From: Minisyncoccota bacterium
GTDB lineage: Bacteria > Patescibacteriota > Minisyncoccia > Phycocordibacterales > UBA9973
Direction of reading: 5' to 3'
DNA: 64,000 bases
Assembly: GCA_041662205.1 (NCBI GenBank)
Contig: JBAZSZ010000001.1
Coordinates: forward strand, 159,107 to 223,106
Below the pieces are notes generated by a model. The model was given only the letters and a program-made list of their open reading frames with translations. It was not told the origin of the DNA and made no database searches. Each line of letters opens with the position of its first letter. Position 1 is the first letter of the stretch. Position numbers and translations under genes: made by a program. Below are positions 8,481 to 62,003 of this stretch, one piece after another.

Positions 8481-9197
8481 TTATTTTTCTAAATAATGTT
8501 TCAAAGTATAAATCCAATCTTCATCAATGCCTTCGCCGTTTAGCTTTTGGTCTAGTAGCCATTGCAAGTAGCCTCTGTCTATTTTCACCACTTCTTCGAT
8601 TCTTTTGCCATTATGTTTCCCGAATTTAAAAGTATGTAGTAGGGAAGGATGGGAAGAAATTTCCATCATTTTTTTTATGGCTTCATCTTCCCCTATGTTA
8701 TTTTCCTTTACCATTTTATTTTTTAATCTTTCAAATAGTTTTTCTAAAACTAAAACATCTCCCATGGCATCATGCGCTGTCGCATCTACTTCTATGTCGA
8801 GCAGATAGCGCAAATATTGCAGATTGTACCGATCTATTTTTTCCTCTTTGTCTAGATATCTAGCGAGTCTGAGCGTGCAAATGAAATTAGCTGGAAAGAT
8901 GTCTTCTTTTTTTATTATCGCCAAGTCAAAGGGAGCATTGTGAGCGACTACAACAGAATCGTTATCTTCAAAAAGTTTTTTAATTATTGCCTGATCCGTG
9001 CTTTCTTTGAAAGTAGGTTTATTGGCTACCATTTTGTTTGTGATGTGGTGCACCGCTGAAGCTTCGGGAGGTATTTTCATTTCGGGTTTATAGAGACCCA
9101 TAAAGCTTTCATCATTACTTTTATAAGCAATCTGAACTAAGAAATCTTTCTCTGTGTTGCCAGTGGTCTCCGTATCAAAAAAAATTAATTTAGACAT
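8481..9197 (-). CDS. DnaQ-like (DEDD) 3'-5' exonuclease with a C-terminal DUF3820-like domain
   Basis: Exo I motif FFDTETTG. The C-terminal FGKHNGKRIEEV...YLQWLL resembles DUF3820. Confidence 0.75.
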   Translation of the reverse strand: MSKLIFFDTETTGNTEKDFLVQIAYKSNDESFMGLYKPEMKIPPEASAVHHITNKMVANKPTFKESTDQAIIKKLFEDNDSVVVAHNAPFDLAIIKKEDIFPANFICTLRLARYLDKEEKIDRYNLQYLRYLLDIEVDATAHDAMGDVLVLEKLFERLKNKMVKENNIGEDEAIKKMMEISSHPSLLHTFKFGKHNGKRIEEVVKIDRGYLQWLLDQKLNGEGIDEDWIYTLKHYLEK

Positions 9198-9235
9198 AGT
9201 GCTATTTTAACATACTTTTGGTATGATTTAAAAAG

Positions 9236-9330
9236 AAATGTAATTTTTAAAAAGCAATCTATCTGGCGCTGTTGCGCCAGCGAACTGCTCGGCTCGTCAG
9301 CCTGCGCAAGGCTTTTTAAAAACAACATTT
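9236..9330. repeat. GC-rich palindromic intergenic element, copy R1 (core 9257-9312), flanked by imperfect 19-bp inverted repeats
   Basis: The core is identical to copy R2 (17331-17386, opposite orientation) except for compensatory changes in the internal hairpin. The flanking inverted repeats are aaatgtaatttttaaaaag / ctttttaaaaacaacattt. Confidence 0.6.
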
Positions 9331-9344
9331 CTATTTAAATTAAT

Positions 9345-9794
9345 ATGTTACATGAACAAATAAAAAATGGAATAAAAGAAGCGATGATGGCCAAAGATGC
9401 TTTGCGCCTAAAGGCTTTTCGTGCGATGTCTTCGGCTTTTACAAATGAACTGGTGGCTAAGAATAAAAAACCGCAAGACATGCTGGCTGATGAAGAAGCC
9501 ATTACTGTTATCACTAGACTAGCAAAACAAAGGAAAGACTCTATCGAGCAATTCACCAAGGGGAACCGTGAGGATTTAGTAAAAGAAGAACAAGAAGAGC
9601 TGGCCATTTTTGAAACTTATTTGCCAAAATTGATGGACAAGAGCGAGGTAGAAAAGATCGCTCAAGCTAAAAAAGATGAACTCGGAATCACTGATGCCAC
9701 CAAAAAGGGAATGTTAATGTCTGCTCTCATGAAGGATCTAAAAGGCAAAGCAGATGGAATGACAGTAAAAGAGGTTGTGGATTCCTTATTTTAA
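9345..9794 (+). CDS. yqeY: GatB/YqeY domain protein
   Basis: 149 aa, YqeY-like helical protein. Confidence 0.8.
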   Translation: MLHEQIKNGIKEAMMAKDALRLKAFRAMSSAFTNELVAKNKKPQDMLADEEAITVITRLAKQRKDSIEQFTKGNREDLVKEEQEELAIFETYLPKLMDKSEVEKIAQAKKDELGITDATKKGMLMSALMKDLKGKADGMTVKEVVDSLF

Positions 9795-9797
9795 TTT

Positions 9798-10400
9798 ATG
9801 CATACAGTAAATCTTTTAACTAGCTTAGTGGAAAATCATCAAATCCTCGCTTATATTTTAATTTATTTCGGGTTGATTTTTGAGGGAGAATTTTTTGTGA
9901 TTTTTACTGGAATTTTATCTCATCTCGGTGCTTTAAATTTTTATTTTGCTTTGCTTTTTATTTTTTTTGGCGCGATAACTAAAACATTTCTTGGTTATGC
10001 CTTAGGGGGATATCTATATAAAAAGCTTAATCATCATAAATTTTTCCAATATATTCAAAAACGTGTTTATAATGTTTTACCGAGATTTAAAACAAAACCA
10101 TTTTGGTCCATCTTTGCTTCAAAGTTTATTATGGGAATAAATTATTTAGTAATTATTTTTTGCGGATATGAAAAGATAAATTATAAACAATTCTTGAAGG
10201 CAGAGATTGTTGCCACTCTTATTTGGGCCCCAGCTCTGCTGTCGCTTGGTTACTTTTTTGGTTATACTGCATTACATATTAGTCAGGAGATTTGGAAATT
10301 CTCGGCGACTATTTTAGTCTTATTTATATTGTTTTTCTTTTTTGATAAATTAGTTAGTTGGCTTTATGAGATATTTGAAGAATTCTATGATGACAAATAA
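9798..10400 (+). CDS. DedA/VTT-family membrane protein
   Basis: Multi-TM protein with DedA-like motifs. Confidence 0.65.
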   Translation: MHTVNLLTSLVENHQILAYILIYFGLIFEGEFFVIFTGILSHLGALNFYFALLFIFFGAITKTFLGYALGGYLYKKLNHHKFFQYIQKRVYNVLPRFKTKPFWSIFASKFIMGINYLVIIFCGYEKINYKQFLKAEIVATLIWAPALLSLGYFFGYTALHISQEIWKFSATILVLFILFFFFDKLVSWLYEIFEEFYDDK

Positions 10401-11286
10401 TAAAAAATTAGTTACGCACAATGGTTCTTTTCACGCAGATGATATTTTTGCAGCTGCCATACTTTCGATTTTTCTTGAAAAGAAAGGAGAAACTTTTGAG
10501 ATAATTCGCACTAGAGATGAAGGAATTATCAAGGGTGCTGATTATATCTTTGATGTTGGAGGAATATATGATCCAGAACAAAACAGATTTGATCATCATC
10601 AGGTCGGTGGAGCGGGCAAGAGAGTAAACGGCATAGAATATTCTTCTTGCGGTTTAGTTTGGAAAAAGTTTGGCTTAGAACTTTGTGGATCTCAGAAATC
10701 TGTTGTTTCATTAGATGAAAGACTTTTTGCACCGATTGACGCTGGGGACAATGGTTTTGATTTAGTGGAAAATAAATTTGAAACATCACCTTATTTTATT
10801 CAACATGCTTTTAATGCGATGCGTCCGACTTGGCGAGAAATAGATTTAAGCGAAGATGAAATGTTTTTAAAATGTGTAGCAATAGCGAAAGAGATTTTAA
10901 TGCGAGAAATTATTCAAGTGCAAGACGCGCTACTCGCAGAGGAAAAAGTGATTAATATTTATAAAAACACAGAAGATAAAAAAATTATTATTTTAGATAA
11001 AAATTATCCTTGTGAATATACTTTGAATAATTTTCCTGAGCCTTTATATGTGATTTATCCAAGAGAAAAAGATGGGTCTTGGGGGGTAAGAGCAGTCAGG
11101 CAGGATCCTAAAACTTTTGTAAATAGAAAAAATTTTCCTAAGCTTTGGGCAGGACTCAGAAATGAAGAGCTTCAGAATGTCACTGGAGTTCGGGATGCAA
11201 TATTTTGTCATCGTGGTTTATTTTTAGCTGTGGCAAAATCTAAAGAAGGGGCTATCAAATTAGCGCAAATTGCGGTAGAATCTTAA
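10387..11286 (+). CDS. MYG1/UPF0160-family metal-dependent hydrolase
   Basis: HNGSFHADD motif. The start is probably the internal ATG (MMTNNKK) rather than the track's 10366. Confidence 0.75.
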   Translation: MMTNNKKLVTHNGSFHADDIFAAAILSIFLEKKGETFEIIRTRDEGIIKGADYIFDVGGIYDPEQNRFDHHQVGGAGKRVNGIEYSSCGLVWKKFGLELCGSQKSVVSLDERLFAPIDAGDNGFDLVENKFETSPYFIQHAFNAMRPTWREIDLSEDEMFLKCVAIAKEILMREIIQVQDALLAEEKVINIYKNTEDKKIIILDKNYPCEYTLNNFPEPLYVIYPREKDGSWGVRAVRQDPKTFVNRKNFPKLWAGLRNEELQNVTGVRDAIFCHRGLFLAVAKSKEGAIKLAQIAVES

Positions 11287-14989: not shown

Positions 14990-15643
14990 ATGTTTGCTAT
15001 TAAAGCTAAAAAAAGAGACGAAGGTCTAAAATTAGATTTCTTAAGAAAATCTGGTGAAATCCCAGCTGTTTTTTACGGAGCAGGGAAAGAAACTACTTCT
15101 ATCTCAGTACCTACTGTTGAATTCAAGAAAGTTTGGCGAGACGCGGGGGAATCTTCAGCTATCCAAGTTCAGATGCCAGATAAAAATATCGATGTACTTA
15201 TTCATGAAGTGCAAGTAGACCCAGTAAATGGCGAGCCAATACATGCAGACTTTTTAGCGATCGACATGAAAAAGAAAATACGTGTCAATGTTCCACTCGA
15301 ATTTGAGGGTATCTCAGAAGCAGTCAAAACTGGAATTGGGAATTTGGTTAAAGTTATGCATGAATTTGAAATTGAAGCTTTGCCTGCAGATTTGCCTCAC
15401 AATCTCGTGGTTGATATTTCTAAACTAAAAACCCTTGATGATCAAATTTTTGTCTCTGACATCAAACTTCCAGCTGGAGTTGTTGTCATCAATGAGCCGA
15501 CTGAAGTGGTGGTTTCTGTTGTAGAACAAGTGGAAGAAAAAGAAGAAGAGGCTGTACCGGTAGATCTATCTGCGATTGAAGTAGAAAAGAAAGGTAAGAA
15601 AGAAGTACCTGCTGAGGAAGCTCCCGAAGGAGAGCCAAAATAG
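14990..15643 (+). CDS. rplY: Ribosomal protein L25 / general stress protein Ctc
   Basis: N-terminal L25 beta-barrel (AVFYGAGKE) and an acidic C-terminal extension. Confidence 0.85.
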   Translation: MFAIKAKKRDEGLKLDFLRKSGEIPAVFYGAGKETTSISVPTVEFKKVWRDAGESSAIQVQMPDKNIDVLIHEVQVDPVNGEPIHADFLAIDMKKKIRVNVPLEFEGISEAVKTGIGNLVKVMHEFEIEALPADLPHNLVVDISKLKTLDDQIFVSDIKLPAGVVVINEPTEVVVSVVEQVEEKEEEAVPVDLSAIEVEKKGKKEVPAEEAPEGEPK

Positions 15644-15676: not shown

Positions 15677-17041
15677 ATGACGAAGAAGACAGTCGTAACT
15701 TTTTTTGTTTCTATAATTATTTTTACGTTAGTTTTTTCATCATTTTTTGCGCAAAAAGCAAAGGCTGCTTTTGATTGTTTGACTCTAGTGGCATCCTCTA
15801 GTCAGTCTGATAAAGATTATTGTAGAAATGAATTAACCCAAATAGAAGCAGAACTTGCAAACCTGATAAATAAACAGAAAGAGCAACAAAAAGCTACAGG
15901 TACGCTGAAGGGTGATGTCGCCTTCCTGACTGCAGAGATCAACGCTTTGAAAACAAAAATAAAAGCTCGAGCGCTCGCTATCACTAAACTCAAAATAGAT
16001 ATTAAAGAAAAAGTTAGTACCATTAATTCTCTTTCTAGCAAGATCGCTCGCGAACATGCTTCGCTTTCTCAATTACTTAGAAATACTGATGAATTTGACA
16101 GTCAAAATTCATTAATTTTCTTATTATCTGATAATAGTATTTCAGATTTTTATAGTGATTTAGAATCTTATAATTCAATCAAAAAAGCTGTAAAAGATTC
16201 CGTTGATATTATCAATGGAGTGAAAACTCAAACTGAAGTCGAAAAGCAGAGCTTGGAAAAAAAACAAGATGCTGAGACGGATGCCAAAGCGGAACTAGAG
16301 AGTGCACAAAAAAGTACTTCTAAAGCAGAAGCAGACAAAAAACAACTTTTAGCTATTTCTAAAGATAAAGAGGCAGCTTATCAAAAACTCGCAGCTCAAA
16401 AAAAAGCTCAGGCAGACAAAATACGTGCTGCCTTATTTCCACTTGCTGGTATTTCTACCAAGATCGACTTTGGAACAGCCCTAGGTTATGCCAATGAAGT
16501 AAAAAATGCCACGGGTGTTGATCCAGCATTTTTGCTTGCTATTCTCACTCAAGAAAGCAACCTCGGAGCGAATGTCGGACAGTGTTATTTAACCAATCCT
16601 GATACTGGAGCTGGAGTAGGAAAAAATACTGGAACACCATTTTCTAATGTAATGAAACCGACGCGTGATGTACAACCGTTTTTGGATATAACTTCAGCTC
16701 TAGGTTTGAATGCATTTCAAACCGCGGTGTCTTGTCCTATTGCTGGGGTGGCAGGGTATGGTGGTGCTATGGGGCCAGCCCAATTTATTCCTTCGACTTG
16801 GAAATTGTTTGCCACTCGTTTAAAAAATACTTTAGGTCATTTTGCTAATCCTTGGTCTCCCCGTGATTCTTTTATGGCTTCAGGAATGTACCTCACGGAC
16901 TTAGGGGCTGTGGGCACTAGCGCTAGCGCGCAAAATAAGGCTGCCTGCAAATATTACGGTTCTGGAGGCGCTACTTGTTCTTATAGTAGAAGCGTTGCGA
17001 AATTAAAAGCTACGATTCAAGCCAATATTGATTTGCTTTAA
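15677..17041 (+). CDS. Secreted coiled-coil protein with a C-terminal lytic transglycosylase (MltB/SLT-like) domain
   Basis: Signal anchor and long coiled coil. C-terminal ESNLG...GPAQFIPSTW motifs are typical of lytic murein transglycosylases. Confidence 0.7.
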   Translation: MTKKTVVTFFVSIIIFTLVFSSFFAQKAKAAFDCLTLVASSSQSDKDYCRNELTQIEAELANLINKQKEQQKATGTLKGDVAFLTAEINALKTKIKARALAITKLKIDIKEKVSTINSLSSKIAREHASLSQLLRNTDEFDSQNSLIFLLSDNSISDFYSDLESYNSIKKAVKDSVDIINGVKTQTEVEKQSLEKKQDAETDAKAELESAQKSTSKAEADKKQLLAISKDKEAAYQKLAAQKKAQADKIRAALFPLAGISTKIDFGTALGYANEVKNATGVDPAFLLAILTQESNLGANVGQCYLTNPDTGAGVGKNTGTPFSNVMKPTRDVQPFLDITSALGLNAFQTAVSCPIAGVAGYGGAMGPAQFIPSTWKLFATRLKNTLGHFANPWSPRDSFMASGMYLTDLGAVGTSASAQNKAACKYYGSGGATCSYSRSVAKLKATIQANIDLL

Positions 17042-17070
17042 AATAAAAATCGTGATAATCTGTACAAGTT

Positions 17071-17295
17071 ATGAAAAAAGATATTCATCCAAAATATGAT
17101 TTAAAAACAAAAGCCACCTGTGCTTGCGGAGCTGTCTTTGAAGTCGGTTCTACTATGCCAGCCATTGCAATGGAAATCTGCAGTCAGTGCCATCCTTTCT
17201 ATACAGGAAATGAAAAAATAATGGACACCGCAGGACGTGTAGAACGTTTCAAAAAGCGAGCGGCTGCTACTACTAAAACGAAAGTTAAAAAATAA
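17071..17295 (+). CDS. rpmE: Ribosomal protein L31 (zinc-binding type)
   Basis: MKKDIHPKY start with a CxxC...CxxCH zinc-binding pattern. Confidence 0.9.
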
Positions 17296-17429
17296 CAAAA
17301 CAAACTTGTTGCAGGCGTACTTTTTAGAATGCCTTGCGCAGGCTGACGAGCCGAGCAGTTCGCTGGGCTAGCAAGCCCAGATAGATTGCATTATAAAAAG
17401 TATGCCAAGAAAGAGTTTGTTTTGTTATT
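17291..17429. repeat. GC-rich palindromic intergenic element, copy R2 (core 17331-17386), flanked by perfect 16-bp inverted repeats
   Basis: aataacaaaacaaact ... agtttgttttgttatt flank a core that is the reverse complement of R1, with a covarying internal hairpin. Confidence 0.6.
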
Positions 17430-17435
17430 AACCTT

Positions 17436-18416
17436 ATGCCTTTAGACTTAGAAGAACTTAAAAAGAATCACAATACTAGCTACTTGGCTGGTGAGTTAGA
17501 ACGCTTGGCGCGTGAGGAAGCCGAAGTGCGGGAAATGCTCGATAGTGATGAAAGTCTGCATGAAATGGCTGCCAAGGAACTTAAATTTATACAAGAAGAA
17601 AAAGAAAGAATAGAGAAACAGGTACAAGATATTCTTAAAAAAGAAGAAGAGCAAGATAGAGAGGCGAATGAATCACCAAATGAAATAGTGCTGGAGGTGC
17701 GGGCAGGAGCAGGCGGGGACGAAGCTTCACTTTTTGCTTGGGAGCTCGCGCATATGTATGAAAAATTCTCTGAAATACAAGGCTGGCAATGGAGGGTAAA
17801 TTATGAATCTAAAAGTGATTTGAATGGCTACAAAGAAGCGAGTTTTGAAATAAAAGGCAAAGACGTTTTTAAAAAGCTTCGCTATGAGACAGGTGTGCAT
17901 CGAGTGCAGAGAATCCCAGCGACTGAGAAAAATGGCCGAGTGCATACTTCTACTGCTTCTGTGGCAGTACTTCCGATTAGGAAAAAAGTAAATTTTCAAA
18001 TTAATCCAGCTGATTTTGATATGGAATATTCCCGTTCTGGAGGAAAGGGCGGGCAGAATGTGAACAAGGTGGAGACGGCGGTGCGTATTATTCACAAGCC
18101 GACGGGCCTAGATGTGCGTTCCACCAATGAGCGAAGCCAGCTTGCGAATCGGGAAAAAGCGATGATGATTTTGACAGCGAAGCTTCAACAACTAGAAGAA
18201 GAAAAAGAGGCGAGCAAGCATGCTGGTATTCGTAAGGGCCAAATAGGTACTGGTGATCGTTCCGAAAAGATTCGTACTTATAATTTCTCTCAAGACCGTG
18301 TGACGGATCACCGTATCAAGAAATCTTGGCATAATTTACCAAAAATTCTAGAAGGGGGAATAGAGGATATCATTGAATCTATTGAATCTGGCGCAGTGGG
18401 GGATGAGGAAGAGTAA
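17436..18416 (+). CDS. prfA: Peptide chain release factor 1
   Basis: GGQ motif and a PAT (PxT) codon-recognition motif, which marks RF1 rather than RF2. Confidence 0.85.
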   Translation: MPLDLEELKKNHNTSYLAGELERLAREEAEVREMLDSDESLHEMAAKELKFIQEEKERIEKQVQDILKKEEEQDREANESPNEIVLEVRAGAGGDEASLFAWELAHMYEKFSEIQGWQWRVNYESKSDLNGYKEASFEIKGKDVFKKLRYETGVHRVQRIPATEKNGRVHTSTASVAVLPIRKKVNFQINPADFDMEYSRSGGKGGQNVNKVETAVRIIHKPTGLDVRSTNERSQLANREKAMMILTAKLQQLEEEKEASKHAGIRKGQIGTGDRSEKIRTYNFSQDRVTDHRIKKSWHNLPKILEGGIEDIIESIESGAVGDEEE

Positions 18417-18427
18417 TCCAACTTTAC

Positions 18428-18572
18428 AACTGTGAATTACGAAACTTTTTCTTGGCACAGGTTTTCTGTCAGCACACATAAAAATCTACTGATTTTTTGC
18501 TATGCTCGGCGCGCCCGCCTGCGCAATGCTTCCAGAAAACTGCGCCTGCGACAAGTTTCATAATTCACAGTT
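18428..18572. repeat. Inverted-repeat-bounded element with a GC-rich core (R5, related to R1/R2)
   Basis: 18-bp terminal inverted repeats aactgtgaattacgaaac / gtttcataattcacagtt. The core ctcggcgcgcccgcctgcgcaatgc resembles the R1 sequence ctcggctcgtcagcctgcgcaaggc. Confidence 0.5.
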
Positions 18573-18697
18573 CACAAGAAATTGCTTTTGGTTTTAGATG
18601 TGGTATGATTATCAGGTAGAATCTCATCTAGCGAAATAGAGTTTCTACGTTTATAAATAGTTTTTGCCCGATTTTTTAAAACGGGAGAAATATAAGT

Positions 18698-19021
18698 ATG
18701 GCTACAAAGCTATATGTAGGGGGACTCCCTTACAGCACTCAAGAGGATGCTCTTAAAGAGCTCTTCGCACAAGCTGGAAACGTTGTTTCTGCTGTGATTA
18801 TCATGGACAAAATGTCTGGTCGTTCAAAAGGTTTTGGTTTCGTAGAAATGTCATCTCAGGATGAAGCTGGAAAAGCTATTTCTATGTTTAATGATCAAGA
18901 ATTTGAAGGACGAAAACTTACTGTCAACGAAGCTCGCCCTATGGAAGCTCGTCCACCACGTTCAAACGGCGGTGATCGAGGAGGATACGGCAACAATGGA
19001 GGTGGACGCCGAGAATATTAA
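18698..19021 (+). CDS. RRM-domain RNA-binding protein with a Gly-rich tail
   Basis: RNP2 (LYVGGL) and RNP1 (KGFGFVEM) motifs; C-terminal RGG/Gly-rich tail. Confidence 0.8.
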   Translation: MATKLYVGGLPYSTQEDALKELFAQAGNVVSAVIIMDKMSGRSKGFGFVEMSSQDEAGKAISMFNDQEFEGRKLTVNEARPMEARPPRSNGGDRGGYGNNGGGRREY

Positions 19022-19046
19022 TTCTTTTTCTTTTACCTTAAAAACA

Positions 19047-19075
19047 AAAAACCACCGTTATAGGTGGTTTTTTGT
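19047..19075 (+). terminator. Rho-independent terminator
   Basis: accacc-gttata-ggtggt hairpin followed by TTTTTT. Confidence 0.6.
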
Positions 19076-19110
19076 TTGCTCAACTTTTTAAACATAACTT
19101 TTTCCGGTAC

Positions 19111-19158
19111 GGATTTTTTGAAGCTTAAAAAATCCTGAAGTTCTCGGCTCGTCAGCCT
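19111..19158. repeat. 25-bp near-perfect palindrome (ggattttttgaagcttaaaaaatcc) followed by a partial copy of the R-family core (ctcggctcgtcagcct)
   Basis: Seen directly; the 16-nt core segment is identical to part of R1. Confidence 0.4.
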
Positions 19159-19228
19159 CGAAACCCCTCAAAAGTTATGTCCTAAAAAGTTTGCTGAAGT
19201 TAAGATATTTTGTTATAGTTTTTTTATT

Positions 19229-19244
19229 GAGCGTGTAGTTCAGT
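19229..19244 (+). pseudogene. 16-nt 5' fragment of a tRNA-Ile-like gene (GAGCGTGTAGTTCAGT)
   Basis: Identical to the first 16 nt of the 5' half at 19284. Confidence 0.4.
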
Positions 19245-19283
19245 ATAGGATGCTACGGGGATGATGTTAAAAAAATAATATAT

Positions 19284-19318
19284 GAGCGTGTAGTTCAGTG
19301 GTAGAACGCTGTCCTGAT
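19284..19318 (+). pseudogene. 5' half (acceptor through anticodon loop) of a second tRNA-Ile-like gene
   Basis: GAGCGTG-TA-GTTCAGTGGTAGAAC-G-CTGTC-CTGATA. Positions 8-37 are identical to the intact tRNA-Ile. Its acceptor strand pairs with the 3' fragment at 19485-19519. Confidence 0.5.
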
Positions 19319-19366
19319 ATAACGAATACAATATAAACGGTTCGCTCGCCGATTATAAAAACAAAT

Positions 19367-19438
19367 GTGTCTGTAGTTCAGTGGTAGAACGCTGTCCTGA
19401 TAAGACAGAGGTCGAAGGTCCGATTCCTTCCAGACACA
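19367..19438 (+). tRNA. tRNA-Ile (anticodon GAU)
   Basis: Complete cloverleaf: acceptor GTGTCTG/CAGACAC, anticodon loop CTGATAA, T-arm GAAGG-TCCGATT-CCTTC. 72 nt, no CCA encoded. Confidence 0.85.
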
Positions 19439-19484
19439 CATGAAATACATTTATTTTTTACATACAGCTCACTGCCGTTTATAA

Positions 19485-19519
19485 GACAGAGGTCGATGGT
19501 CTGATTCCATCCACGCTCA
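19485..19519 (+). pseudogene. 3' half (anticodon-stem 3' strand through acceptor) of the second tRNA-Ile-like gene
   Basis: GACAG-AGGTC-GATGG-TCTGATT-CCATC-CACGCTC-A. Its acceptor strand is complementary to the GAGCGTG of the upstream 5' fragments. The T-stem differs from the intact gene by compensatory changes. Confidence 0.5.
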
Positions 19520-19593
19520 CTTGTATAAATTTCGGAGTTACTTTTGAAATAAAAAAGGGTGAAATTTTATCAAAAATATGGTATAATGAATGT

Positions 19594-26497: not shown

Positions 26498-26674
26498 ATG
26501 CAAAAAGGAAAAAAAGCAAAAGCAAAAGCAAAAGATAAAGATTTTAAAGATGATGATTGTGAAATATGCAAACTTATGAGAAATGGAAATCCAACCCCTG
26601 AGGCTTTAGAAAAAGCTTTTAACTTGCAGAATTTTTTAAATAATTTTCCAAAAGATAAGGGCAAGAAGAAATAA
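26498..26674 (+). CDS. Possible small Lys-rich protein (58 aa), not in the ORF track
   Basis: ATG-initiated ORF (MQKGKKAKAKAKDKD...). Its 3' end is one copy of the 42-bp direct repeat. Weak RBS. Confidence 0.3.
   Translation: MQKGKKAKAKAKDKDFKDDDCEICKLMRNGNPTPEALEKAFNLQNFLNNFPKDKGKKK
26630..26671 (+). repeat. Direct repeat, copy 1 (aattttttaaataattttccaaaagataagggcaagaagaaa)
   Basis: Differs at 3 of 42 positions from copy 2 at 27133-27174. Together the two copies bracket the TspO gene. Confidence 0.6.
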
Positions 26675-26696
26675 TTTAAAATGATATAATAAAATT

Positions 26697-27128
26697 ATGA
26701 ACAACACTTACTCTTGGTATTCGCAATTAATAAAACCTACTTGGGCTCCACCAAGCTGGCTCTTTGGTCCGGTGTGGACTTTTCTTTATGTTTTGATTGC
26801 TGTGTCATTCGGAAAAGTATTTTGGATGGCATGGCAAAAACAGATTACGCTTCTCGTTGCCTTACCTTTTTTATTGAATCTAATTTTTAATTTTGCTTTT
26901 ACTCCTTTACAATTTGGATTACAAAATAATTTTTTAGCAGCAGTAGATATTCTTTTAGTTTTAGGAACTCTCATCTGGGGTATGATTGCGATATACTTTG
27001 CCTCGCAGGAGCTTGTAAGCGTAGGAGGGTCTAGTATAATGTGGATTGTTTATATTCAAATTCCTTATCTTCTCTGGGTATCATTTGCGACTATTCTGCA
27101 ATTAACTGTCACTTTTTTAAATAGGTAA
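26697..27128 (+). CDS. tspO: TspO/MBR (tryptophan-rich sensory protein) family
   Basis: N-terminal YSQLIKPTWAPPSWLFGPVWTFLY is the TspO signature; five TM helices. Confidence 0.75.
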   Translation: MNNTYSWYSQLIKPTWAPPSWLFGPVWTFLYVLIAVSFGKVFWMAWQKQITLLVALPFLLNLIFNFAFTPLQFGLQNNFLAAVDILLVLGTLIWGMIAIYFASQELVSVGGSSIMWIVYIQIPYLLWVSFATILQLTVTFLNR

Positions 27129-27132
27129 TTTT

Positions 27133-27174
27133 AATTTTTTAAATAATTTTCCAAAAGATCAGGGTAAGAAGAAA
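27133..27174 (+). repeat. Direct repeat, copy 2
   Basis: See copy 1. Confidence 0.6.
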
Positions 27175-27361
27175 AAAAATTAGATAATAATGAAGTTGGA
27201 TTAAATATTCAAAAATAGATAAGGATGGATTATGAGAAAGGGAGCAGGGGAACTTCAAGAGCTTTTTGTTGAAACTGGATTAGATAATATGGTTGACAGA
27301 ATAAATAAATCATGATATAAAAAAGGCAGATCGAGCCTTGCTCATTTTTAAATTTAAATTC

Positions 27362-27389: not shown

Positions 27390-27956
27390 ATGCGCACGAA
27401 TCTCATTGAGTCCTATATTGATATGCTTCAAAAGTCTTTAGGGCTTATTAAGCCACCAGTTGAAGAAGAAAAGTTGCGTGATCTATACGACTCAAGAAAC
27501 TTCGGTGGTATGGTCAGCCATATCCAAGAAACCTTGAGACTAGACATGAAAATCCGTTTGGGCTACGTAAGCAAAGGTGGACCAAAAGATGCACCAGCAT
27601 GGGTGGAAAGACCAATTGATATGCCGTTTTACAATTCCTCAGAATTTCGACAGACCACTGTAGTAGTGTATCTCCGAAAAACATTCCTACGAAATGGCAA
27701 TTTTGAGGAAGCAGTATTGGCTATTTCTCATGAACTTAGCCATATAGTTCTCGATGCTATTAAGCATCCTTTGAGAATGCATGAAATAGCAGTCGATTTA
27801 ACTGCTATGTTGCTTGGGTTCAGAGATTTTTACGTGACAGGTTGCCAAACAGCAGAACCTAGCATCTCTGGCAATCCTTATGAGATTAGATCTATAGGTT
27901 ATCTGACACCCGAAGAAGTAAGTCATGCGGCCAAATACATGACTTTCAGAAAGTAA
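27390..27956 (+). CDS. Hypothetical protein with an HExxH (HELSH) zinc-metallopeptidase-like motif
   Basis: AISHELSHIVLD...HPLRMHE. More G/C-rich than the context. No adjacent HTH partner was seen. Confidence 0.4.
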   Translation: MRTNLIESYIDMLQKSLGLIKPPVEEEKLRDLYDSRNFGGMVSHIQETLRLDMKIRLGYVSKGGPKDAPAWVERPIDMPFYNSSEFRQTTVVVYLRKTFLRNGNFEEAVLAISHELSHIVLDAIKHPLRMHEIAVDLTAMLLGFRDFYVTGCQTAEPSISGNPYEIRSIGYLTPEEVSHAAKYMTFRK

Positions 27957-30442: not shown

Positions 30443-30475
30443 GTAATTATTATTTGAAAATTTAAAATAGTTCTT

Positions 30476-30548
30476 GAGAAATGCCTTGCGCAGGCCGACT
30501 GGGCCGAGCAGAGCAAAAATTCAGCAGAATTTTATGTGTGCATTTCGA
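30476..30548. repeat. Divergent copy of the GC-rich element (R3) between atpE and atpF
   Basis: The core gccttgcgcaggccgactgggccgagcag resembles R2's gccttgcgcaggctgacgagccgagcag. Flanked by the inverted repeat gaaatgc/gcatttc. Confidence 0.45.
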
Positions 30549-30581
30549 GAGAAGCTATTTTAAATTTTCAAAAATTACCAC

Positions 30582-35322: not shown

Positions 35323-35379
35323 AATTTTTTAATATTTACTTTTAAAAACCCGCATAAAATTCTACTGAATTTTTGCTTA

Positions 35380-35400
35380 GACTTCGGCCCGTCGGCCTTC
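35380..35400. repeat. Short GC-rich box (acttcggcccgtcggccttc) related to the R-family core cggcYcgtcRgcc
   Basis: Lies between atpD and atpC; 2 mismatches from the R1 core segment. Confidence 0.35.
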
Positions 35401-35447
35401 GTATGATTTTTAAAAGCAATATTTAAAAATTTTTCAAAAACAATCAT

Positions 35448-36573: not shown

Positions 36574-36586
36574 ATTTTCAACAAAT

Positions 36587-55123: not shown

Positions 55124-55146
55124 AAATTATAGTATACTATATATCT

Positions 55147-61130: not shown

Positions 61131-62003
61131 ATGAAAAAATACATTACAATTTCGTTATTTGTTTTTTGGGTAATTGCTGTTGCAGTAGTTGTGGCAGGTT
61201 TGATTTCTTATAATAAAAATCAACCATCAACAACAGTACCAAATACTAATGGAATTAATCAAACTCCTAATATTTCTGGAATTGATTCTAAAGTCACCAC
61301 TTTAGTATTGTCTAAAGCTGAGCTAGCTAAACACAATTCTAGCCAGAACTGTTGGCTCCTTATTTCTGGTAAGATTTATGATGTTACTTCTTATATCAAT
61401 CAGCACCCTGGTGGTGCTAGCACCATAATACCTAATTGCGGTACTGATGCTACTACAGCATACGATACCAAAGGTAGACCAAATGGTAGTCCGCATTCTA
61501 GTAATGCGGAAGCCCTGTTAGCAAATTATTTTATAGGTAATCTAAATCAAACTTTACAAATTGGATCTGGTAAAAAAACTTCTACTCCAACAAATACAAA
61601 TCCTCCTACTCAAAATAAACCTTCTACTATTCCAACTACTCCGACCCCTGTGCCCAATCCGACGCTAGCTCTTACCATGACCGAATTGGCCAAACATAAT
61701 TCCCGCCAAAGCTGTTGGCTTCTTGTTTCTGGTAAAATTTACGATGTTACTGCTTATTTAAATCAACATCCTGCAGGTGCTAGTATTATTTTACCAACTT
61801 GTGGTACTGATGCCACTACGGCATATGTGACGAGGGGTGGTACTGGTACGCATTCGTCTTCTGCTAATGCACTTCTCGCTAATTATTTTATTGGTAATTT
61901 AAATCAAACAGTCAATACAACTCCAACCAATCCATCTACTCCACCTGTGGTAAATCCAAACCCAACTACTCCTCCTTCAGGAGATGATGACGATGATGAT
62001 TAA
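61131..62003 (+). CDS. Membrane-anchored secreted protein with two tandem cytochrome b5-like heme-binding domains
   Basis: N-terminal signal anchor. Two ~75-aa repeats each carry HPGG / HPAG and a downstream His. Pro/Thr-rich linkers and a poly-Asp C-terminus. Confidence 0.7.
   Translation: MKKYITISLFVFWVIAVAVVVAGLISYNKNQPSTTVPNTNGINQTPNISGIDSKVTTLVLSKAELAKHNSSQNCWLLISGKIYDVTSYINQHPGGASTIIPNCGTDATTAYDTKGRPNGSPHSSNAEALLANYFIGNLNQTLQIGSGKKTSTPTNTNPPTQNKPSTIPTTPTPVPNPTLALTMTELAKHNSRQSCWLLVSGKIYDVTAYLNQHPAGASIILPTCGTDATTAYVTRGGTGTHSSSANALLANYFIGNLNQTVNTTPTNPSTPPVVNPNPTTPPSGDDDDDD

Follow-up and report, generated by a model that had tools for sequence, protein, structure and literature searches.

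The question addressed here is what kind of element is represented by a set of GC-rich palindromes in the genome of a Minisyncoccota bacterium (NCBI GenBank assembly GCA_041662205.1, contig JBAZSZ010000001.1): hairpins that evolved in place, structured RNAs maintained by the host, or mobile DNA. The palindromes lie in a stretch of 64,000 nucleotides (positions 159,107 to 223,106 of the contig, forward strand), which as a whole will be called the window. A first-pass annotation had interpreted them as intergenic elements with covarying stems, similar to repetitive extragenic palindromes (REPs) or to structured RNAs. Comparison of the window with loci fetched from relatives (designated by L-numbers) showed that the finding is real and goes beyond that account: the window carries six copies of one repeat family, and this family is a phylum-wide, structurally constrained mobile foldback element, which has also colonised protein-coding genes. 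We consider it probable, with some reservations given below, that the family consists of non-autonomous, selfish, foldback-type mobile elements, which are specific to Parcubacteria and work like the Rickettsia palindromic elements (RPEs).

The copies in the window were recognised with a covariance model (CM) built from 112 relatives. They are listed here with S denoting the strand on which the core folds:

R1, 9226-9340, core 9237-9323, S on the minus strand; CM score 74.8 bits, E=6e-21
R2, 17291-17429, core 17320-17406, S on the plus strand; CM score 72.6 bits
R5, 18428-18572 (a 145-nt hairpin), core 18455-18540, S on the minus strand; CM score 85.5 bits
R7, 19089-19177, minus strand; CM score 38.7 bits, E=1.8e-9, degenerate
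R3, 30455-30570, core 30472-30558, S on the plus strand; CM score 88.3 bits
R6, 35331-35418, minus strand; CM score 59.4 bits, degenerate

The assumption that the palindromes form a true repeat family with further copies was borne out, more than 150 copies being available for comparison. R1 and R2 had been described as sharing an identical 56-nt core in opposite orientation. They do share an exact 33-mer (9280-9312 on the plus strand in R1, 17331-17363 on the minus strand in R2; 0 of 100 shuffles of the window had such a match), and the full extent of the inverted match is 82 nt, with 85% identity. Their internal hairpins (ctggcgc-tgtt-gcgccag in R1, ctgggct-tgct-agcccag in R2) differ in three pairs, changed on both sides, and in one loop base, i.e. 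the three compensatory substitutions are exactly as previously described. Two short pieces (19143-19158 and 35380-35400), taken earlier for fragments, lie within CM matches at 19089-19177 and 35331-35418, and are thus full-length, degenerate copies (R7 and R6). The cores are indeed richer in GC than their surroundings (0.46-0.49, compared to 0.32-0.40 in the window), and the window copies, enclosed in self-complementary arms, fold better than shuffled controls (z between -6 and -10.5).

R1 is located between the divergent genes 8481-9197 (-) and 9345-9794 (+). Its arms are 30 nt long and 90% complementary, its folding energy is -48.0 kcal/mol on S and -43.2 on the other strand, and one of its two small hairpins (hairpin B, see below) is of the GC-rich type (CUGGCGC/GCGCCAG). 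R2 occupies the rpmE-prfA spacer and has 42-nt arms with 83% complementarity (-63.0 on S, -54.8 on the other strand); its inner part of approximately 118 nt (AAACTTGTTGCAGG...CCAAGAAAGAGTTT) is a unit present also at unrelated loci, and its outer 11-bp arms (aataacaaaac/gttttgttatt) occur at the R2 locus alone. R5 is found downstream of prfA and runs antisense to the genes on either side (-69.8 and -53.9), and R3 in the atpE-atpF spacer (-46.1 and -38.8). R6, in which the stem and the internal loop of hairpin A are mutated, is in the atpD-atpC spacer. R7, placed between the gene of an RRM protein and a tRNA-Ile cluster, belongs to a distinct subfamily (GGGGUUUCG-AGGCU...GUACC), found also in L125, L174, L180 and L233. 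None of the six window copies is intragenic. The copies fill whatever short spacers the compact genome offers; their association with genes of translation and RNA metabolism, emphasized in the first-pass annotation, is incidental, the copy of the same spacer being inverted or absent in close relatives.

The conserved core is approximately 86 nt long, and on S it forms a three-way junction composed of a closing stem (P1) and the small hairpins A and B. It reads ...GC-C/A-UUGCGCAGGCNGNCGNGCCGAGCA-G/U-AGCAA-(7 bp)-AGCA-(7 bp)-UAUGYGYGC... The base of hairpin A contains a C-G or A-U pair, a U-A pair, a bulged U, a G-C and a C-G pair; in its upper part an internal loop, with G(C)A facing GA, is followed by a GC stem of 4 bp, whose last pair may be U-A, C-G or G-C, and by the loop GNCG. 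In hairpin B a bulged A breaks a run of three pairs, after which come a 7-bp stem of nearly any sequence and an AGCA loop. The unpaired nucleotides, i.e. the G(C)A/GA internal loop, the GNCG and AGCA loops and the bulged A, are deeply conserved. P1 runs on into arms, which are specific for the subfamily and for the locus. Two enlarged copies, L142:526-670 (145 nt) and L172:916-1040 (125 nt), contain extra sequence within one small hairpin when compared to the 86-nt model, and may represent nested insertions.

In an almost gapless alignment of 112 distinct copies (A1) 91.1% of the cells expected to pair were paired, as opposed to 71.4% in shuffled alignments, and 25 of the 31 pairs were found changed on both sides. 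The covariation score was 0.525, compared to 0.178 in the shuffles and 0.08-0.18 when the pairing partners were slid. Because the search pattern fixed a part of hairpin A, a covariance model was built and copies outside the pattern were also gathered. In the alignment including these copies and fitted to the model (A3) 93.2% of the cells were paired, 30 of the 31 pairs had changed on both sides, and the score rose to 0.713 (0.191 in the shuffles); across the alignments 65-71% of the cells were paired in shuffles. Compensatory changes are seen also in hairpin A, where GGCU/AGCC is replaced by GCAC/GUGC or GCGC/GCGC, and G-C by U-A. The view that a folded structure is under selection (91-93% paired against 65-71%, 25-30 of 31 pairs) is therefore upheld, in contrast to the idea, put forward with it, that the structure could be a DNA cruciform.

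These data bear on a further explanation, according to which each spacer evolved its palindrome separately, as an ordinary intrinsic terminator or an mRNA-stabilising hairpin. Most copies are intergenic and form very stable hairpins, as this explanation would have it, but homology of the branched core extends over different loci and genomes, near-identical units stand at unrelated loci, and there are copies between divergent genes and inside open reading frames (ORFs). Moreover, a U-tract is missing, and the scan, which covered R2, R5 and R7, called no terminator at these copies. The shared core and the intragenic copies already contradict an origin in place, to which we give practically no credence.

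We also considered known structured RNAs. No Rfam family matched, the hammerhead, twister, pistol, hatchet, HEARO and IS605-associated RNAs included: at gathering thresholds the window yielded only four tRNAs, and R3 and R2, searched up to E=10, gave only chance-level matches. The S strand reads GGCUGACGAGCC, which contains the hammerhead-like CUGANGA, but members of the family have CCGACGG or CUGUCGA at this place, there is no GAAA junction and no Rfam ribozyme matches, which led us to reject a hammerhead ribozyme. A tRNA-like gene or arm-less tRNA was rejected as well, ARAGORN and Rfam finding only the four true tRNAs and the 7-nt loop GCC-UUGCGCA-GGC having a pyrimidine at position 37. By inspection, the layout of the bulge and the G.A pairs in hairpin A or P1 is off the consensus of the K-turn.

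The two strands of the element are not equivalent. In each of the five window copies tested the fold of S was more stable than that of its complement, and the same held for 107 of 110 non-redundant copies, with a mean gain of 6.3 kcal/mol. The pair 44-68 is G-C in 58 sequences and G-U in 52, and A.C does not occur at all. In P1 on S, tandem G.A/A.G and G.G mismatches are numerous; read on the opposite strand, they would be pyrimidine-pyrimidine. The same asymmetry extends to the outer arms beyond the model, where the isolated mismatches on S are G.T in 39 and A.C in 9 cases, purine-purine in 17 and pyrimidine-pyrimidine in 6. Because the copies face both ways relative to genes and to GC skew, a mutational strand bias cannot produce mismatches specific for S. 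Selection thus acts on one particular strand, for folding in single-stranded form. The better folding of S (107/110) and the concentration of G.U and purine-purine mismatches on it do not agree with a symmetric DNA cruciform. We also rejected the possibility that the arms are kept complementary by symmetric, DNA-level palindrome correction alone, which does not explain the 39:9 excess of G.T over A.C.

Whether the active strand is RNA or DNA is a matter on which the evidence leans both ways: the tolerance of G.U in long stems points to RNA, the lack of promoters (none was called at R2, R5 and R7, the copies scanned), the free inversion and the antisense intragenic copies point to single-stranded DNA. 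If it were RNA, the copies could be functional small RNAs or RNA modules, for instance a protein-binding three-way junction processed from a long stem; the RNA would be transcribed from S, and the host would maintain the copies for the sake of this RNA. The very strong covariation together with the conserved unpaired nucleotides, the GC-rich core in an AT-rich genome and the retention of copies at the same sites in diverged genomes are in line with this explanation, and the S-specific G.U and tandem G.A pairs, including those in the outer arms, fit RNA better than DNA. The comparison of related strains speaks against it.

R5 is 95% identical over 144 nt to a hairpin at a different locus (L247:16322-16484) of a related strain, whose flanking sequences are approximately 88-90% identical to the window. 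There the element occupies a 163-nt spacer between a methylase gene and a convergent gene encoding 645 amino acids. The corresponding site of the window is empty, and the window keeps its own R5 downstream of prfA. Similarly, R2 is 95% identical over 117 nt to L136:4737-4823, and the flanks are unrelated. Two empty sites of the window were identified:

36574-36586, no strand assigned, empty 13-nt spacer between the methylase gene and a convergent 658-aa gene; the counterpart in L247 is filled with the R5-type element
55124-55146, no strand assigned, empty spacer of 23 nt that separates divergent genes; filled in L011, L129 and L173 by a hairpin copy of approximately 115 nt

Conversely, L243-L246 lack R7 at the equivalent position, and the atpD-atpC spacer of L247 is free of the element. 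(In L247 this spacer, at 15117-15180, holds a short tandem repeat, four times aaagcct, instead of the element.)

Orientation is polymorphic as well. The outer arms of R3 (tgaaaatttaaaatag/ctattttaaattttca) are identical in the window, in L243 and in L240-242, yet in the atpE-atpF spacer S is on the plus strand in the window and on the minus strand in L243 and L240. The inner part is inverted in L243, and in L240-242 and L247 it is inverted and has a swapped hairpin-B module; the L240-242 copy carries an R1-type hairpin-B module in place of the AU-rich one. In the atpD-atpC spacer the copy of L012 is intact and stands opposite in orientation to R6 of the window. An element that flips inside an essential operon is unlikely to serve as an orientation-dependent signal for that operon.

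For a host-maintained small RNA it is difficult to account for a presence and a choice of loci that differ between close strains, for a spacer that holds the element in either orientation, and for copies lying in coding sequences in both orientations. Degenerate copies (R6, R7) are tolerated, no promoter- or terminator-like signal was called at R2, R5 and R7 when positions 17000-19300 were scanned, and with arms so variable there is no conserved position where a promoter or terminator could lie. Adding the lack of an Rfam match, we regard the small RNA explanation as unlikely.

The whole hairpins are 100-147 nt long. Their interior is conserved, and the arms differ between subfamilies and loci. 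An all-against-all comparison revealed units of 113-144 nt common to unrelated loci, among them a large subfamily (AAAACTCGTYGCAGG...CCRAGAAAGAGTTTT; AAAACTCGTYGCAGG...GAGTTTT) present at many unrelated loci. Most copies of such shared units add 2-17 bp of complementary sequence found at that locus alone, i.e. the arms are built of subfamily-specific layers and locus-specific outward extensions. When the RecG gene of L043, which lacks the element, was compared with those of L140 and L172, which contain it, the net insertion amounted to approximately 27 amino acids, about the size of the core, and in the RecG of L140 perfect 14-bp arms fall on residues that align with native sequence. The terminal repeats had been noted earlier to differ between copies and still to be self-complementary. 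This is correct as far as arms and folds are concerned, and the variation is not arbitrary.

The simplest reading of these sequence comparisons is that the arms grow like the layers of an onion. The core would insert first, then its flanks would become complementary, either by template switching during replication at quasi-palindromes, a process known from E. coli, or by selection on the S-strand stem, or by both; the enlarged hairpin could then move as a unit and grow again. Growth of this type would account for the first impression of termini that are arbitrary yet always self-complementary. We also considered that the arms were a pre-existing hairpin of the target or an inverted target duplication, and rejected this possibility: units of the R5 type and of the AAAC...GTTT type take their arms with them when they appear at new loci, and the RecG comparison suggests outward extension after insertion.

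The elements had been described as intergenic, which proved not to hold strictly: 28 of the 152 copies (approximately 18%) lie inside ORFs that read through them, 19 in sense and 9 in antisense orientation. The sense copies nearly always use the frame which gives [SL][IL]AQA.EPS[IR]A..QQ..M[RC], the other two frames of S usually meet TAG or TGA, and the antisense in-frame copies give ..ARPVGLR.. At most four ORFs end inside an element; other partial overlaps lie at the 5' ends of ORFs and are artefacts of calling the longest ORF. The host genes encode TsaD, RecG, RsmA/KsgA (RrnaAD), Fmt, Dus and an enzyme of the PGM/PMM family. TsaD has two hot loops with up to two copies per gene, and Dus has three sites. 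When TsaD was compared with a solved structure, 31 residues coded by the element stood in for 4 loop residues. In a clustering of the ORFs of the fetched loci the largest cluster was held together by the element's own translation. A protein-database search with a 47-aa composite peptide matched a single protein of 45 amino acids, which was uninformative.

The open frames bear on another explanation, in which the element is an intervening sequence cut from RNA, either a mini-intron or a piece excised in the manner of RNase III or RtcB and triggered by the paired arms. The long arms would bring the ends of the element together, and there is a precedent in animals, where a splicing system triggered by the pairing of inverted terminal repeats excises DNA transposons from mRNAs (PMC12779559). 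However, a sequence that is excised would not need an open frame, and nearly all copies within genes keep the frame and contain no stop codon (28 are read through, whereas no more than 4 ORFs terminate in an element), the sense copies using the one frame that is generally open. With 86-145 nt the element is also too small for a group I or group II intron, and no ribozyme family matched. Excision thus appears very improbable, and from the intact reading frames we conclude that the in-frame copies are most probably translated, as an insertion of approximately 27 residues.

Other inserts were noticed in the same proteins. The RecG gene L172:4231-6591 and the TsaD gene L138:2375-3577 contain a second, shorter GC-rich palindromic in-frame insert (cctgcccgaaatgctgcgcataacgctgcaggcggg), which codes for PARNA[AS]HN[AE]AGG, and the TsaD of L171 has other GC-rich inserted peptides, LRHQGSGGQAK and LPAGRQGKFPP. 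It seems that inserts of this kind come in several families in the proteins of Parcubacteria.

As to the distribution of the family, a scan of one genome per species with a loose pattern returned 119 stretches, of which 114 were chance matches in GC-rich genomes. The true members came from three Candidatus Nomurabacteria, from Parcubacteria RAAC4_OD1_1 and from one further bin, all belonging to the candidate phyla radiation (CPR). A tighter pattern found at least 120 loci in metagenomes of groundwater and sediment, with a median GC content of 0.38; several of them came from the Hainich groundwater wells. Parcubacteria genomes bear about one copy per 10 kb. In viral contigs the pattern gave nine matches, none of which belonged to the family (the best had approximately 27 bits and lay in GC-rich DNA), for which reason a viral origin was rejected. 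A full-text search of the literature on CPR, Parcubacteria or Patescibacteria found no description of such an element.

Some copies stand in adjacent pairs, 10-85 nt apart, inverted as in bacterial interspersed mosaic elements (BIMEs) or in tandem, often an intact copy beside a divergent one:

Adjacent pairs: L205:775-983, L227:4241-4438, L233:510-733, L221:3571-3778, L215:793-975 and L203:708-963

In seven genomes (L125, L131, L144, L198, L201, L212 and the window, 8481-9323) a copy adjoins the exonuclease III gene (xth). These copies may be upstream or downstream, sense or antisense, and in L131 there is one on both sides (9470-9555 and 10363-10448). The flank of xth could be a permissive spacer or something more.

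We can now return to the reading favoured at the outset, a selfish foldback element. Its mechanism might be as follows. The folded S single strand would be recognised by a putative enzyme acting in trans, and the piece to be moved would be set by the stem as a whole rather than by a fixed terminal sequence, which would explain that whole hairpins of 90-145 nt turn up at new sites. After insertion the inner part can invert between the arms and modules are exchanged between copies, as seen in the related strains. Copies would last only where they are harmless, i.e. in short spacers or, in the single frame that is open on each strand, in surface loops of proteins, and the element would have no function for the host.

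Several observations weigh against this reading. In the fetched sequence no candidate was found for a transposase, reverse transcriptase or other partner. Neither the filled/empty pairs nor the subfamily boundaries gave evidence of a target-site duplication or of a clear target motif; the flanks of the copies are often complementary to each other rather than directly repeated. [quoted passage not shown] Between co-directional genes there is a bias of 34 antisense to 15 sense copies, a count which includes orthologous loci. Finally, the translation of the in-frame copies is deduced from reading frames.

A phmmer search of 918 kb of sequence, fragments of many genomes, with IS200 and IS608 TnpA sequences as queries gave no match, which is weak evidence either way. 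In the ORF clustering no recurrent neighbour gene stood out beyond conserved gene order (xth, comEC, ftsK) or host genes.

These results are of importance for a more specific form of the foldback reading, namely that the family is REP/BIME-like or derived from IS200/IS605 and is moved as single-stranded DNA by a Y1 HUH enzyme, a REP-associated tyrosine transposase (RAYT) or TnpA. S would then be the 'top strand' and hairpins A and B the enzyme-binding hairpins. Strand-specific folding that tolerates G.T would be expected, as would the fact that no target-site duplication was found, adjacent inverted or tandem pairs (L205, L227, L233, L215, L203) occur as in BIMEs, and a TTAC-like sequence at the left junction of three R5-type copies recalls the target of IS608. 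The palindromic arms themselves include this TTAC, which may therefore be no target at all. Other features fit less well: no ORF resembling a Y1 transposase was seen in the 918 kb (with a small coverage of genomes), REPs are simple extragenic hairpins of 20-40 nt, the ends of IS200/IS605 do not pair with each other as the two ends do here through P1 and the arms, and there is no strict orientation relative to GC skew, S being on the plus strand twice and on the minus strand four times within one replichore. We find this form of the reading doubtful. The designation REP in the strict sense does not apply to elements of 86-145 nt with a three-way junction, some of them intragenic, and without a RAYT-like gene in the sequence searched.

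A bolder idea, which we regard as unlikely, is that the S-strand junction is the working part of a mobility system not yet described, in which an enzyme or the RNA itself recognises the shape and moves whatever stem is attached to it. Shape-directed mobility would explain why the ends vary, why target duplications are lacking, why the inner part flips and flops, and why the arms grow in layers. With RNA as the active strand, we would be dealing with a structured RNA of small size, retro-mobile or self-processing, by which protein genes of bacteria are colonised.

Whatever the mechanism, the element has practical consequences. Through a peptide that is easily recognised (AQA.EPS) it makes CPR proteins longer and more diverse, it will mislead gene calling and searches for RNA motifs, and it can serve as a strain marker in groundwater metagenomes. 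The branched fold, conserved and with non-canonical pairs specific for one strand, is supported well enough to be studied in vitro.

Some features of the window that do not belong to the repeat family should be mentioned. Near R7, at 19225-19525, a tRNA-Ile(GAT) gene is split in the anticodon loop. Its 5' half (19284-19319) and 3' half (19484-19523) join into a valid tRNA-Ile, and the insert of approximately 164 nt, flanked by a repeated ATA, holds a complete second tRNA-Ile(GAT) (19367-19439); a third piece, a partial 5' end, is at 19230-19252. In L243-L246 the tRNA-Ile gene is uninterrupted and on the other strand. The ORF 61131-62003 has an internal direct duplication of 150 nt with 78% identity (61326-61475 and 61689-61838), which continues for 64 nt with 75% identity (61489-61552 and 61846-61909), at a spacing of approximately 360 nt. 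A 57-nt direct repeat with 86% identity (26630-26686 and 27133-27189) precedes two consecutive small ORFs (26697-27128 and 27390-27956), and may be a duplicated promoter or leader region.

It is instructive to compare the family with known systems. MITEs (Correia/CREE, ERIC, RUP, BOX; PMC10969869) are, like the present elements, short, non-autonomous and multicopy, have inverted ends, and are mostly intergenic, occasionally in frame within ORFs. In MITEs the terminal inverted repeats are conserved, because the transposase reads them, and there are target-site duplications, whereas here the interior is conserved and the arms vary. With REPs and BIMEs, which are associated with RAYT, a Y1 HUH enzyme, the family shares the interspersed GC-rich imperfect palindromes, strand-specific folding, some adjacent inverted pairs and the supposed action as a folded single strand. 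A REP, however, is a simple extragenic hairpin of 20-40 nt with a conserved 5' tetranucleotide; the present elements are 86-145 nt long, branched and in part intragenic, and no RAYT was seen in the sequence fetched.

The T-shaped terminal hairpins of parvoviruses, such as the inverted terminal repeat (ITR) of adeno-associated virus (AAV), exist in flip and flop orientations and are acted upon by Rep; folded single-stranded sites are also used by IntI (integron attC) and by XerCD (CTX-phage attP). By analogy, the AAV ITR is likewise a long stem capped by two small hairpins, approximately 145 nt in all. Recognition as a folded single strand, which for our elements we can only infer, and an inner part that occurs in two orientations would be further similarities. 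The viral and integron structures, on the other hand, are ends of replicons or attachment sites with known enzymes, and attC has conserved outer boxes around a variable centre, the reverse of what is seen here. The GC clusters and 'byp' elements of yeast mitochondria are also GC-rich mobile palindromes in an AT-rich compact genome, located in spacers and coding regions. Byps are 27-55 nt long and the ribosome skips them; in our case the frame is open, pointing to ordinary translation.

The closest analogue in behaviour appears to be the RPEs, of which RPE-1 to RPE-10 were reportedly described by Ogata and colleagues in 2000. RPEs are palindromic elements of approximately 100-150 bp, found in spacers and in frame in housekeeping genes, with no known transposase (PMC10969869). 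Both families consist of many copies of palindromes of about 100-150 bp in a small AT-rich genome of a host-dependent bacterium, both occupy spacers as well as unrelated housekeeping genes, to which they add a short peptide at tolerated positions, both keep the hairpin by compensatory changes, and for neither is a transposase known. The differences are equally clear. An RPE is a simple hairpin and is confined to one genus, whereas the elements described here have a branched three-way junction with conserved loop nucleotides, layered, locus-specific arms, inversion and module exchange documented between close strains, and a distribution over many lineages of Parcubacteria. Because of the different host phylum and the branched core the family is not an RPE; the likeness is one of behaviour and was not drawn from sequence comparison. 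RPEs have for a long time been regarded as a peculiarity; the present family would be an independent second case of selfish palindromes that survive by being translatable, in bacteria whose genomes are among the smallest and most streamlined, and which nevertheless tolerate the element inside essential enzymes. The comparative data, more than 150 copies with strain-level polymorphism, inversions and module swaps, are far richer than those available for RPEs, and allow direct testing of how RPE-like elements move.

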